From Eledone cirrhosa (lineage: Eukaryota): a stretch of DNA of 64,000 nucleotides. Both the position numbers and the translations under genes were made by a program. The notes beneath the pieces are model-generated. The model was not told the DNA's origin, did no database searches, and saw nothing but the letters and a program-made list of their open reading frames with translations. Shown piece by piece: positions 875 to 25,050 of the stretch. The DNA lies in contig OZ024741.1 in assembly GCA_964016885.1 (NCBI GenBank), forward strand, positions 125,922,001 to 125,986,000. The letters run 5' to 3'. The number at the start of each line of letters is the position of its first letter. Position 1 is the stretch's first letter.

Positions 875-2658
875 TTAATCTACATACAGTTATGAGTGGA
901 CACTTTAATTTCCCTCTGGCTCAGTTAGCTTGTTTATCAGATGGCCACAGGCAGCACAGTGTCTGTTAATTGCAACCACTTAAATATCTAGATATTATTG
1001 ACTGTTACAGCTCTGATGATTTTGGAAAATTCCTTGCCTATTTTGTGTACATATATCTTCTAGCTATGGCTCCCAAGTATAATGCAAGGGTGGTGTAAAG
1101 TGTAATGATAATTCCATTGGATGAGGGTCTTCTTTAGTTGTGACTGACTTCAAGGCTACAATCCTGGATAAAGTGTTTTGTGAAAGACCGGCAGTCGCCC
1201 ATGCATATTAGTCTCCTCTCTCTATGCCACCAATGTTATCCAAGTGAAAGGCAAAGAAAGGTTGATACAGCTTGGCACCAGTGTCATTGTTGCAACTCAT
1301 TTTTTTCCAGCTTAGTGGCCTGGAACAATGTGAAATAAAGTGTCTTTCTCAAGGACACAACACACTGCCCAGCTCAAGAATGAAACTCATGAGCCCAACA
1401 CCCTAACCACTTATCAGCTTATTGATGCAAGAAAATGTAGAAGTCGTGAAAGAACTGGAATGCAGTGTTTCACTACAAAAGCTGTTTGAGGTATATGGTG
1501 TTGGTTCCAAGGCTTAAAATGTAGAAGTGGTGAGGGAACTGGGGTGCAATGTTTTGCTACAAAAGCTGTTTGTGACATATGGTGTCGGTTCTCAGGCTTA
1601 AGATGGGTTTAAATTTAGTTTGCATCTTCATATTAAAACAGAGGGCGTAGGAGATATCTTACTGTCTTCATTATGTTTCTAGTGAATAAACAAAGCTATG
1701 TTGTGAAGATTTAGGAGCAAAAAACTTCATAATAGTATGGCTTCACTCCCCTGAATTAATTTAACTTGACTTCTGTGAGTTTAAAAAAAAAATGGATAAT
1801 TTGACTTGACATAGATCTGGAACCAAGGGTGCTAGAAAATCGGTGGTGTACCCACATATATATATATACACATGCATATATATATATTTCTACTGCTTAG
1901 TGCACCCTGGTATACTAACAACTCTCAAGCAACTTGTATAATTATAATTCTCACTTTTTTTCTATCTTTCTTTGTTTGCATTTTATTTATTTATTTATTT
2001 GCTATTTATTGGATTTGCATGATACTTTTTTTCTTATTTTGTGAATCTACAAAACCTCAGTTCATAATATATAGTTAGTGACAGGAACAGTGTCCAGCTA
2101 TAGAAACCTTGTTAAAAAAGGTAAAGGGCACAACAACCTCTTTAATATTGGTGATATGATGAAACACACCCAATATGCTCTGTAAAGAGGTTGGTGATAG
2201 AAAGGACATCTAGTTGTAGATTTGCCAAACAGCAGGTCAGGAGTACTCTTCAGTTGTGTCAAAGACATGACAACCTCCTTATGCTGCCGTTATAAAATGC
2301 ACCAGATGTACTCTATAGAGTGCAGGAACATTTGTAAGTAGGATGTGACTACCTTGACCCATCTGATTGGTCTGTAGTGATGACCTGCCTCATCCATCCT
2401 AGCAAATAGAATGGACATTAAATAAAGACAATGATTATTCATATGTACATGGAGTGGATGGGTATTGAAATGTATCAAGGCTGGGATAATTGAAGGGATC
2501 ATTCATTTATTAGCTTTTTTTGTGTTGTATTTTTTATTTTATTTTATTTAAAATAACATCAACATAGTATTAAAAAAATGGAAACATTGAACCAGCTAAG
2601 AACATTCATGTTTTTTTTTTCAGCTTTTTAAAGAATGAATACATATAAAAATGAGATA

Positions 2659-22039: not shown

Positions 22040-22310
22040 GTGAGTATCTCACTCTTCCTCTTTCTTTCTCTCTTTGGCTTTCTCTATTGTATACACTCCC
22101 TCTCTTCTTGTTTACTTTGCCACAGAACAACCTCTCATTTCCGAATATCAATAATCTCTCTCTCCTTCTCCCCCCCCCCTCTATATATATATCTATATCA
22201 GGGGCAAAGGGTCTATGTATGTACTGCATGCCTTACTTTTTCCAGGATAAATGATGTTCGTGTAATATCAAATTAATTATTCTCTATCCTCATTGTACTT
22301 GTGATACATA

Positions 22311-22836
22311 TCTATATATATAAAACTGTGGTTGTCTGTCTGTCTATCGATTTTTGGCACACATCTCCTCTTAGAATCTCTCACGGAATTGCACCGAAAT
22401 TGCTATACTTGTACATTGAGCCCTAGCGAAGACATCGGAAAAAAAATATTTCAAATTGACCCACCCTATGTGACGAAATCGAATATAATGTATCGATTTT
22501 TGAGCGTAAGTTATCAGTTATTTCCCTTTGTTCTGTTTACATTGAGCGTCTTACGTTGTTTTTCTCTGCGTTGCAGTGTTTACATTTTCGATCTTTGTTA
22601 ATAAATAACCAGTGCAGTTTTTATCCCCAGCATCCTTTTTTGTTATAACATTCGGGTTATCGTTATGTTTTCTTAACTTCATAAGGCATATTGTTGGTTG
22701 AGGGAATATTAATCAAAAACACCACATGCAAGTCTGCACAGTAGACACTACAGTTTTTAAGCCAAAAAAGAAACTTAACATTGTAACTTTAACACAGCTA
22801 CTGAGCGACCCCGAGCAACGCCGGGCTTTACTGCTA

Positions 22837-22837
<1 letters not shown>
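22311..22837 (+). mobile_element. Non-autonomous Helitron
   Basis: a|TCTATATATATAAAAC 5' end; GC hairpin CCCGAGCAACGCCGGG then CTAG|t; inserted at AT with no TSD. Confidence 0.88.
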
Positions 22838-22872
<35 letters not shown>

Positions 22873-23134
22873 TTTTCTATTTCTCATTCCTTTATTTCTT
22901 TGGATAAATTGTAAACAATTATTTAAGTAGAGAAAGCTCCAGTTTGTTTTGTGAAAAAAAGAATAAAAATCACTGAATTAGTTTCTTTCATTTTCTATGT
23001 ATGAAGGAGTGGGAGTGAGGTTAAAGAGAGAAAAGCAGCTCCCCTGCCCCACACTCTGCCATGGCAATTGGCTGGCATCATGGACTGTATGCCCTGCTTT
23101 CCATGTCACCCTTTGCTACTGATATATATATATA

Positions 23135-23531
23135 GGCTCATGGCTTAGTGGTTAGAGCATTGGGCTTGCAATTGAAAGGTTGTGCGTTTAATTCTCGGAC
23201 CGGGTGATGTGTTGTTTCCTTGAGCAAGACACTTTATTTCACATTGCTCCAGTTTACTCAGCTGTAGAAATGAGATGATAGGGACTGGGGTCCCTATCAT
23301 TCCACTGCAAAGTGGTCGTGCAGGTGCCACAGCAAAAAAGCACCCATCACTCACTGTAAATGAGGTTGGTGTTAGGAAGGGCATCCAGCTGTAGAAATCA
23401 AGCCAGAATCAGTTCCTGTATGAGCAAGACATGGTAAACCGACCTAACATTGCCCACAACAGGACAACCCGTCTAACCCATGCTAGCGTGGAAGAACGGA
23501 CGTAAAACGGTGAGGATGATGATGATGATGA
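23135..23531 (+). mobile_element. CORE-type tRNA SINE family B with RTE-derived (GAT)n tail
   Basis: TGGCTTAGTGG A-box; CCTTGAGCAAGACACTT..CAGTTTACTCAGCTGTAGAAATG resembles the MIR CORE; close to 29877-30221. Confidence 0.85.
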
Positions 23532-23770
23532 TATATATATATATACGGGATAACAGATTATTGTTATAGGTAGTCCACTTAGGTGTAGTCCAGTTAGGGT
23601 ACTCCGAGTAGTGGATTGTATCAACGCTTGGCTAAGTTTGACTCAACAAGGCGTTTCCATAGTGATGCTGCGCGTACGCATTGATTTCTATGTTGTTTAC
23701 ACTTGGAGTAATGATAAATCAAGAAAGAAGAGTGACACGGTTTGCTATACAAAAAAGGTTTTTAATCACT

Positions 23771-23880
23771 TTGCTGACAATTGTTTCTCTGAACTGGTAG
23801 GTCTAGAGATCGCTACCCGATTGTTTTCACGTCATTCGATCACCAATACATAGTTGTAACCAGTCAATTCATCAGAGCAA
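23771..23880 (-). ncRNA. Type I hammerhead ribozyme motif (long stem II, palindromic stem III)
   Basis: Minus strand: ttgct CTGATGA a ttgactggt [about 70 nt] accagttcag a GAA ACAATTGT C agcaa; stem I ttgct/agcaa, GUC site. Confidence 0.65.
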
Positions 23881-24598
23881 GCGAGAATGAAGGGAATACA
23901 CAGGCATGGCCTCTATATATAGTAATGGTGGCATTCAATTAGAACAATAAAAACAATACTAACAATGCTAGCAATAAATTATTTGAAATAATCACAACAT
24001 CAATCTAAGTAAGACATAGAGTATACTTAAGACTTTAGCATGTAAAACGAGTTGATATGAGGCAGATGTATGAAATTGACATGTAAAAGCTGTCATGGGG
24101 TGTATTATATATAGTGTAGAGATAAGCAGGGGCTTTAAACAATGTACCATTTCCTTTACCGTAGGTTTGGTGACCGTACAAATTATTTATTATTTGACAG
24201 ATAAAATATTTATCATTGTAGTGAGGATAGTAATATTTGTGGTGTGAAGTGGATTCAATATTTATGTGGTCTATATTAGATGAAGGGATTGTTAGTTCGA
24301 ATCATGGGGTTGTTTAGCTTTCACATCATCAATAACATACATGTATAAGATAACATTAACAGAGTAGCAATATAATAGGTAAGTTAATACAGAGGTTAAA
24401 GAGGCAATATATATATAGAGAGAGAGAAAACATGCTGACTACAATTATAACAGCAAGAGGAAGGTGATGTTTTACTTTGGTAGTATTCTGAAAATGTACT
24501 TGGATTTAGGTTCATCTGTTGAGAATCAAAGGTGAAGAAGTTGTGTTGACAGCAGCTGAGAAGGGATATATTTATGGGTTGATAAGATGTTTGCAGAC

Positions 24599-24646
<48 letters not shown>

Positions 24647-24989
24647 AAACGTAAACAGACAACAAAGCAAACACCACAGTACAATGAAGAAATATATTAG
24701 TTTAATACTTAATATAGTAGGAAAAGAGTCTTTATGTTTTGGACACTAGTCCTTCATCAGAAGATAGAATGAGAAATAAAAGATGAAATAGAAAGATAGA
24801 GAGTGAAAAGATGAAGAAACAAAAAAAATTATTTTTGAGAATAAGCATGTGTGTATTCAGTCAGTCATTTTTGTATATATATATATGTGTGTAAATAAAG
24901 TAATTCCATCGGAAAGGTCCAGGAAAAAAGAGTGCTCTATGTAGGTTACAGAACTTATTAGTTATGTAATAAACAACATAAGATAATTA

Positions 24990-25050
24990 TTTCATTTACC
25001 AGTGGTTTCTTGAAAGCAAACAAAATTTGCTCTCTGTCATCAGAATGAAA
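24990..25050 (-). ncRNA. Type I hammerhead ribozyme motif (compact)
   Basis: Minus strand: tttcatt CTGATGA ca gagagcaaa ttttg tttgctttc aa GAA ACC act GGT A aatgaaa; 7-bp stem I, 9-bp stem II, GUA site. Confidence 0.7.

Follow-up and report, generated by a model that had tools for sequence, protein, structure and literature searches.

The motif at positions 24990-25050 (minus strand) of the window, the 64,000-nt stretch of Eledone cirrhosa DNA analysed here, has the core of a type I hammerhead ribozyme, and at the base of its stem II a two-by-two internal loop, CA facing AA, stands in place of the G10.1-C11.1 pair. This raises the question of whether such a loop defines a variant hammerhead architecture in a mobile-element family or marks a decayed copy, an either/or in which a sequence-only reading of the locus had framed it. 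Each option holds in part, because the CA/AA loop is private to this copy while the family state is also not the canonical G-C; the two are not exclusive: the copy has decayed, and the family it belongs to is a variant one. We conclude that the motif is very probably the hammerhead of a Hydra-clade Penelope-like element. The copy that carries it in the CDK11 intron is truncated and inverted in part, has two private mutations in stem II and is likely inert at this place.

Direct re-reading of the DNA bore out the minus-strand sequence, core and stems previously described. Stem I pairs 25050-25044 with 24996-24990 (7 bp), the CUGAUGA core occupies 25043-25037, and stem II pairs 25034-25026 with 25020-25012 (9 bp including one G.U, to which the predicted fold adds a tenth pair). 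G12 lies at 25009, stem III consists of 3 bp with a 3-nt loop, and H17 is the A at 24997, with cleavage predicted between 24997 and 24996. The type I core is thus complete (C3-U4-G5-A6-N7-G8-A9, G12-A13-A14, A15.1-U16.1 and H17), and three stems surround it, with stem I open-ended and covariation present, as judged from the fold and from a comparison across types described below. What the motif does lack, as had been claimed, is G-C at 10.1-11.1, where C.A plus A.A are found instead. The minimum-energy structure of a 71-mer is the hammerhead itself, at an unremarkable energy (z -1.28; 22 of 200 shuffles equally good), and the six matches to a loose core pattern in the window are likewise unremarkable, that number being reached by 9 of 100 shuffles.

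Covariance models did not recover the motif. The Rfam check proposed with the sequence-only reading gave no RF00163 (Hammerhead_1) match in the window at the gathering threshold, nor did any Rfam hammerhead model match the window motif within 24000-26000 at E up to 10; low-scoring hairpin-type microRNA models were the sole Rfam matches near it. Across 20 family loci, no hammerhead match fell on any family motif among the 150 listed of 245 Rfam matches. One weak RF00163 match is among those listed (L091, 586-629, minus strand; 25.4 bits, below threshold), away from the family motifs.

Genome-wide pattern counts place the motif in a large family. Out of 1,421 candidates returned by a DNA search with 24955-25165 as query, 40 received a score. 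The core together with the start of stem II had 660 exact matches, and the core with stem III 3,856, with none for the reversed control in either case; the latter count excludes a chance match and disposes of the possibility, raised earlier, of a single genomic copy. Leaving the core free gave 5,909 matches (control 7), and sister types with other stem III loops gave 5,760 further ones (control 2) along with 140 more, decayed copies for the most part (control 3). Exact-pattern counts are lower bounds, in which inverted insertions are counted twice. Among the first 100 listed of the 5,909, for which eight positions were left free, bulk variation was confined to N7 (58 U, 40 G, 1 C, 1 A) and to the base after A9, which differs by subfamily (81 U, 10 A, 9 C); by hand count, 12 scattered changes fell on the 600 bases at the six conserved positions of the core. 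The repeat also occurs at high depth in contigs of two sequencing runs of unrecorded kind, which has no bearing on expression. The variant pattern matched 4 times in viral and 35 times in metagenome contigs, and we take these matches as chance because stem I never exceeds 3 bp in them.

Stem covariation, which had been suggested as a check, is present. A sample of 141 motifs fell into 20 types, from which the 8 with at least two members were kept and 12 singletons dropped. Across the 8 types, 43 of 48 stem I pairs are formed, compared with 30.0 +/- 2.7 after swapping arms between types, and stem II positions 2-8 pair in 44 of 56 cases, compared with 29.1 +/- 3.0; for neither stem did any of 5,000 swaps reach the observed pairing. 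Position 10.1/11.1, by contrast with these stems, is paired in just 2 of the 8. Since the types are mutually related and were retrieved by core patterns, the comparison backs the stems but should not be taken as a formal test of significance.

The base of stem II could then be compared between the window copy and its family. The 3' side of the loop lies at 25010-25011, and the A at 25010, immediately preceding G12, is shared by 3,806 of the 3,856 family matches (98.7%); just one of the 50 copies with another base has G and C at 10.1/11.1, by eye in an unrelated short stem. A canonical G-C consensus, which would have made this copy merely degenerate, is therefore not what the family has. The pattern with canonical G10.1-C11.1 at equal stem III spacing had 181 matches (control 46), against 9,616 for the family and sister types. 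On the 5' side (25035-25036), the position at which the family varies (U, C or A) is 25036. Because the A before G12 is near-universal and the base after A9 varies by subfamily, we read the family state at 10.1/11.1 as a single H-A position (U-A, C.A or A.A) that replaces G10.1-C11.1, above which the typical stem II begins with a U-A pair and runs to 10-12 bp. In the window copy a private change at 25035 destroys that U-A pair, and a second one at 25032 turns an A-U pair into G.U, still paired. The CA/AA state has 4 matches genome-wide, compared with 660 for the pattern admitting both states, and among the 4 the exact stem II of the window copy is seen in the window only. These counts identify the CA/AA loop as a mutation private to this copy and not as the family state, and the proposed variant architecture gives way to a copy-level change.

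An alternative register, with an extra base after A9 and then G-C as in Cervera-type hammerheads, yields at most one pair. Sister types have A.G, A-U, C.U, U.U and occasionally G-C at 10.1/11.1, and one type has a 2x2 loop. That is the TTT-loop type (L066, L067, L071 and L073, 1501-1556), in which such a loop at the stem II base is usual, and it is a better test case than the window copy for the idea of a loop-bearing hammerhead. In the GTC-loop type (L020, 1205-1274; L117, L118 and L127 from 1501), which has no tail box (see below), the 10.1/11.1 position spans G-C and U.U; a reading as a displaced G-C pair was dropped, as other pairs occupy that place in this type.

The insertion that carries the motif has a composite structure. 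Comparison of copies delimits the last 205 nt of a 5'-truncated element at 24893-25097 (minus strand), the window copy being identical to the natural copy L031 at 202 of 210 positions. It is followed by an inverted second arm at 25098-25159, in element sense on the plus strand and without the catalytic core, which was presumably lost through a jump between two CCACTG words; the arm stops at +38 from the cleavage site, where the family has its short end. The motif falls within an inverted repeat with arms of 62 nt (24959-25020 and 25098-25159, 90% complementary), a feature overlooked in the sequence-only reading. A tail at 24893-24958 (minus strand), about 65 nt between short and long ends, is present at one end only, and the whole is flanked by (TA)n/(TG)n at 24874-24892 and (TA)n at 25158-25175, the target microsatellite. 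Among 124 family 3' ends, 62 lie between +34 and +42 relative to the cleavage site (47 at +38 itself) and 61 reach +86 or farther, and 37 of 44 inverted pairs combine one long with one short end, in loci that were chosen in part for being inverted. An inverted truncated arm with a one-sided tail is a Hydra-clade feature, present in this family; the tail signature has been described for such elements (PMC8557442) and, in the account of an Anolis element, traced to two reverse-transcription starts (PMC11167929). Folding predictions for the entire minus-strand RNA have the inverted arm base-paired to stem III, to the cleavage site and to the 3' strand of stem I. The window holds a single copy of this hammerhead and no tandem repeats of the non-LTR retrozyme kind.

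Family comparison further revealed, within the tail, a box at 24927-24954 (minus strand), a small hairpin that ends in AGAGCACT (24938-24931), 59 nt past the cleavage site. At 58-63 nt beyond the cleavage site, a box with this ending is present, against a background of 3%, in 38 of 80 ACT-loop motifs, in 7 of 10 TCT-loop motifs, in 13 of 23 TTT-loop motifs (one probably by chance) and in 0 of 5 GTC-loop motifs, most of the motifs that miss it being short-end copies. It begins directly past the short end and recurs in L036, L058, L067, L074 and others. By hand count it also stands 57 nt past the cleavage site in the Hydra-2_Ajap consensus of a sea cucumber, and at the 5' start of Hydra-1_Ajap from the same source; it was not found in the remaining four consensus sequences of that file (PMC8557442). 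A text search of the literature for the box, a weak test, returned nothing. We regard the tail box as a candidate protein-recognition signal.

Longer copies, absent from the window, have upstream of the hammerhead a single ORF with a reverse transcriptase (RT) plus a GIY-YIG-type endonuclease at the C terminus. This linkage upholds the earlier assignment to Penelope-type type I hammerheads and contradicts the earlier proposal of a non-autonomous family. Ten loci were examined for the endonuclease stop, which in four of them precedes the motif by 1.0, 1.8, 2.4 and 4.3 kb; among the other six, two have no motif downstream in the DNA at hand and four no exact stop-word match. In copy L036, the RT is located upstream of the endonuclease. 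The RT translations of L043, L044 and L048 contain RWK and DKT motifs, family translations contain a CxCx5C linker as well as CxxC and CxH flanking conserved E and N, and insertions target (TA)n; these features together define the Hydra clade as described in PMC8557442, to which the family belongs as assigned by motifs. A Neptune-like reading of the endonuclease was dropped once RWK, DKT and CxCx5C matched Hydra. All 12 RT loci examined are interrupted by stops or frameshifts. Upstream of the motif in 6 loci of the TCT-loop type lies a related endonuclease (about 53% identity), and direct ORF linkage covers the ACT-loop family and this type.

No ORF of the element remains in the window, where tblastn was empty. 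Three ORF pieces matched no RT or endonuclease family in Pfam, a solved-structure search with the RT piece found nothing, and viral contigs held no RT relative; a homologue search returned 2,622 relatives, nearly all without names. More distant Hydra-like RT-endonucleases, with about 41% RT identity, occur at L038 5517-7197 (minus strand) and L077 1771-2811 (plus strand). Longer copies also show, some 75 nt upstream of the hammerhead, a pyrimidine tract ending in CAG (L031 at about 2190-2230, minus strand; L020, L021, L029), which resembles an intronic 3' splice site within the repeat of the element.

Among known systems, the Hydra-clade elements of Craig et al. 2021 (PMC8557442; including Hydra-1_Obim and Hydra-2_Ajap) share the ORF motifs, (TA)n targets and inverted 5'-truncated arms, a type I hammerhead near the 3' end with a 9-nt near-palindromic stem III and, in 15 of 25 families, a 10.1/11.1 mismatch followed by a Y-R pair. 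In our hand count of File S2 of that paper, in which two rows have identical sequence, the stem II base of the 25 Hydra families is U.U or U.C in 15, G-C in 7 and G.U in 2, with an extra base in 1; the 9-nt stem III is found in most of them, and a Chara element has C.A. A relaxed 10.1/11.1 pair is thus typical of the Hydra clade and is already tabulated there. Whereas the Hydra mismatches in that file are U.U or U.C with a stem II of 3-5 bp, the family described here has U-A, C.A or A.A (sister types A.G, C.U and 2x2 loops) with a stem of 10-12 bp, and its 3' untranslated region is longer and microsatellite-rich. The Hydra-1_Obim hammerhead differs in sequence, and the family here is therefore another one, which we place, by sequence comparison, as a new family within the known Hydra clade.

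The minimal Penelope hammerheads reported by Cervera and De la Pena 2014 (PMC4209133) are likewise of type I, lie in Penelope repeats as dispersed single copies, form opposite-strand pairs and were proposed to cleave as dimers. They differ in that A9 of their consensus is followed by one further base and then by G10.1-C11.1, with hardly any stem III, whereas the present family has an additional base on each side and a stem III of 3 bp. Figure S3 of that paper shows U.U at the base of the stem once, in the Hydra magnipapillata row. Short-stem-III variants of Lunse et al. 2017, as related in PMC6765202, are also Penelope-linked, with a short stem III and dimer cleavage. The Anolis Poseidon element PAc (Frangieh et al. 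2024, PMC11167929) has the same two preferred 3' ends that produce a tail, with the hammerhead upstream, but belongs to another clade and has a tail of 30-40 nt compared with about 65 nt here; its ribozyme was assayed and reported to cleave with the help of protein, whereas that of the present family is predicted. Rfam Hammerhead_1 (RF00163) and animal non-LTR retrozymes share the core nucleotides and type I topology, and the family differs from them in having no Rfam match and in its dispersed, inverted copies, with no tandem arrays seen. A literature search found no assay of a Hydra-clade hammerhead; Lunse et al. 2017, outside that search, may cover and have assayed the variant. The main text of an octopus repeat annotation (PMC13282606) does not mention hammerheads, and the accessible parts of a 2026 retrozyme preprint and of PMC6155905 contain nothing on assays of the Hydra-clade kind.

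The window contains a second hammerhead, at 24723-24765 (minus strand), within a different repeat at about 24645-24860 that has 2,736 candidates. It is of the classical minimal Penelope type, with an extra base after A9, a G-C pair and a 4-bp stem II; this copy has lost G12 and 16.2 through CpG-type changes, both of which its relative L168 retains. Other decayed pieces lie at about 25790-25950, 29366-29460 and 43456-43552. Elsewhere in the genome, another repeat family, with an example at G000:C1:116213790-116213845, has a hammerhead core with a G-C base pair and a different stem III. A low-GC stretch (24%) and strongly G-skewed stretches at 46001-48000 and 54001-60000 of the window are likely simple repeats.

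The host gene is as had been described. Kinase exons lie on the plus strand on both sides of the motif, the one exon tested has CDK11B as its best match (E 2e-16; next CDK2, 4e-10), and the intron, with GT/AG ends, runs from 22040 to 26510. As plus-strand CDK11 exons flank a minus-strand motif, the motif is antisense to its host gene, with the two splice sites about 2.9 kb and 1.35 kb away. On the pre-mRNA strand, 24959-25159 (plus) forms a 62-bp near-perfect hairpin, which is a possible RNA-editing substrate.

From these observations we envision the following course for the source element. Its transcript would fold into the hammerhead and cleave slowly after GUA, either helped by the element's protein or as a dimer joined by the near-palindromic 9 nt of stem III, and the ribozyme would cope with U-A or a mismatch at 10.1/11.1. 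For the 9-mer of stem III, the predicted energy is -8.2 kcal/mol as a self-duplex and +0.4 kcal/mol as a hairpin; the model does not require a dimer, because stem III of the monomer in context is predicted at a probability of 0.5-0.8 for the window's family. For the TCT-loop type, the best predicted fold is not the hammerhead. Reverse transcription would start at two downstream sites, +38 and about +102, which would account for the tail, as reported for the Anolis element. For the window copy, the host pre-mRNA would contain only the antisense strand of the ribozyme, and in a minus-strand RNA arising by read-through, the inverted arm would base-pair over the cleavage site. On balance we expect that RNA typical of the family probably cleaves, and consider cleavage of the window copy in vivo very improbable.

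The alternative that deserves most attention is that the family motif is a catalytically dead relic, retained as a protein-binding or folding signal for retrotransposition, which we consider doubtful. G10.1-C11.1 is counted as highly conserved in Penelope hammerheads (PMC4209133), so its loss may mean weak activity, and the canonical pair is rare here relative to the family and sister types, as counted above. Penelope hammerheads are moreover reported to cleave as dimers and with low activity in vitro (PMC4209133; PMC6765202), and cleavage mutants left insertion of the Anolis element in vitro unaffected (PMC11167929), for which cleavage is accordingly dispensable. Against a dead relic, the catalytic positions are fixed although N7 shifts between subfamilies, and H17 remains A; the same Anolis motif does cleave with protein, and a natural U10.1.U11.1 hammerhead is among the variants reported as tested in PMC3088659, which also notes that searches usually reject such matches. 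A more specific proposal, somewhat less doubtful to us than a dead relic but still tentative, is that the Hydra clade holds a functional hammerhead subclass without G10.1-C11.1, in which a mismatch or 2x2 loop forms the stem II base and the 9-nt near-palindrome mediates dimerization. The subclass would be coupled, over a fixed 57-62 nt, to the tail box, which is shared between this genome and a sea cucumber and would be where the RT-endonuclease recognizes the RNA.

The remaining explanations concern the window copy. Adoption of the insertion by the host for CDK11 regulation, as an antisense ribozyme or through the 62-bp pre-mRNA hairpin acting in editing or splicing, could draw on the long plus-strand hairpin inside the intron (z -12.5); yet the same inversion occurs in many family copies, the window copy is decayed as others are, and the splice sites are far off at the distances given, which makes adoption highly improbable. 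We give even less weight to the first proposal for this locus, a CA/AA loop as the distinct functional architecture of its own family: the TTT-loop sister type does normally have a 2x2 loop (MC/CA; 11 motifs), but the few CA/AA matches in the window's own family refute it there, and in other respects the window copy shares 96% identity with ordinary copies. As for a chance match or a piece of a DNA-transposon-like foldback, the fold energy is unexceptional, and the TA flanks and long terminal inverted repeats have a MITE-like look. The inversion junctions nevertheless vary by copy, the ends are asymmetric, the reversed-pattern controls gave 0 matches, and copies run into the RT-endonuclease ORF, a link that refutes this reading and leaves it a negligible probability.

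Taken together, a decayed Hydra-clade hammerhead in a truncated insertion remains our preferred reading, and the window locus by itself matters little, being one decayed copy among thousands. If the proposed subclass is real, about ten thousand such motifs per genome would be invisible to Rfam. The family offers a natural series (U-A, C.A, A.A, A.G, U.U, G-C and a 2x2 loop) with which to probe how far hammerheads tolerate losing their best-conserved flanking pair, and the tail box provides a concrete target for how Penelope-like elements may pick their RT start and what the ribozyme does for them.
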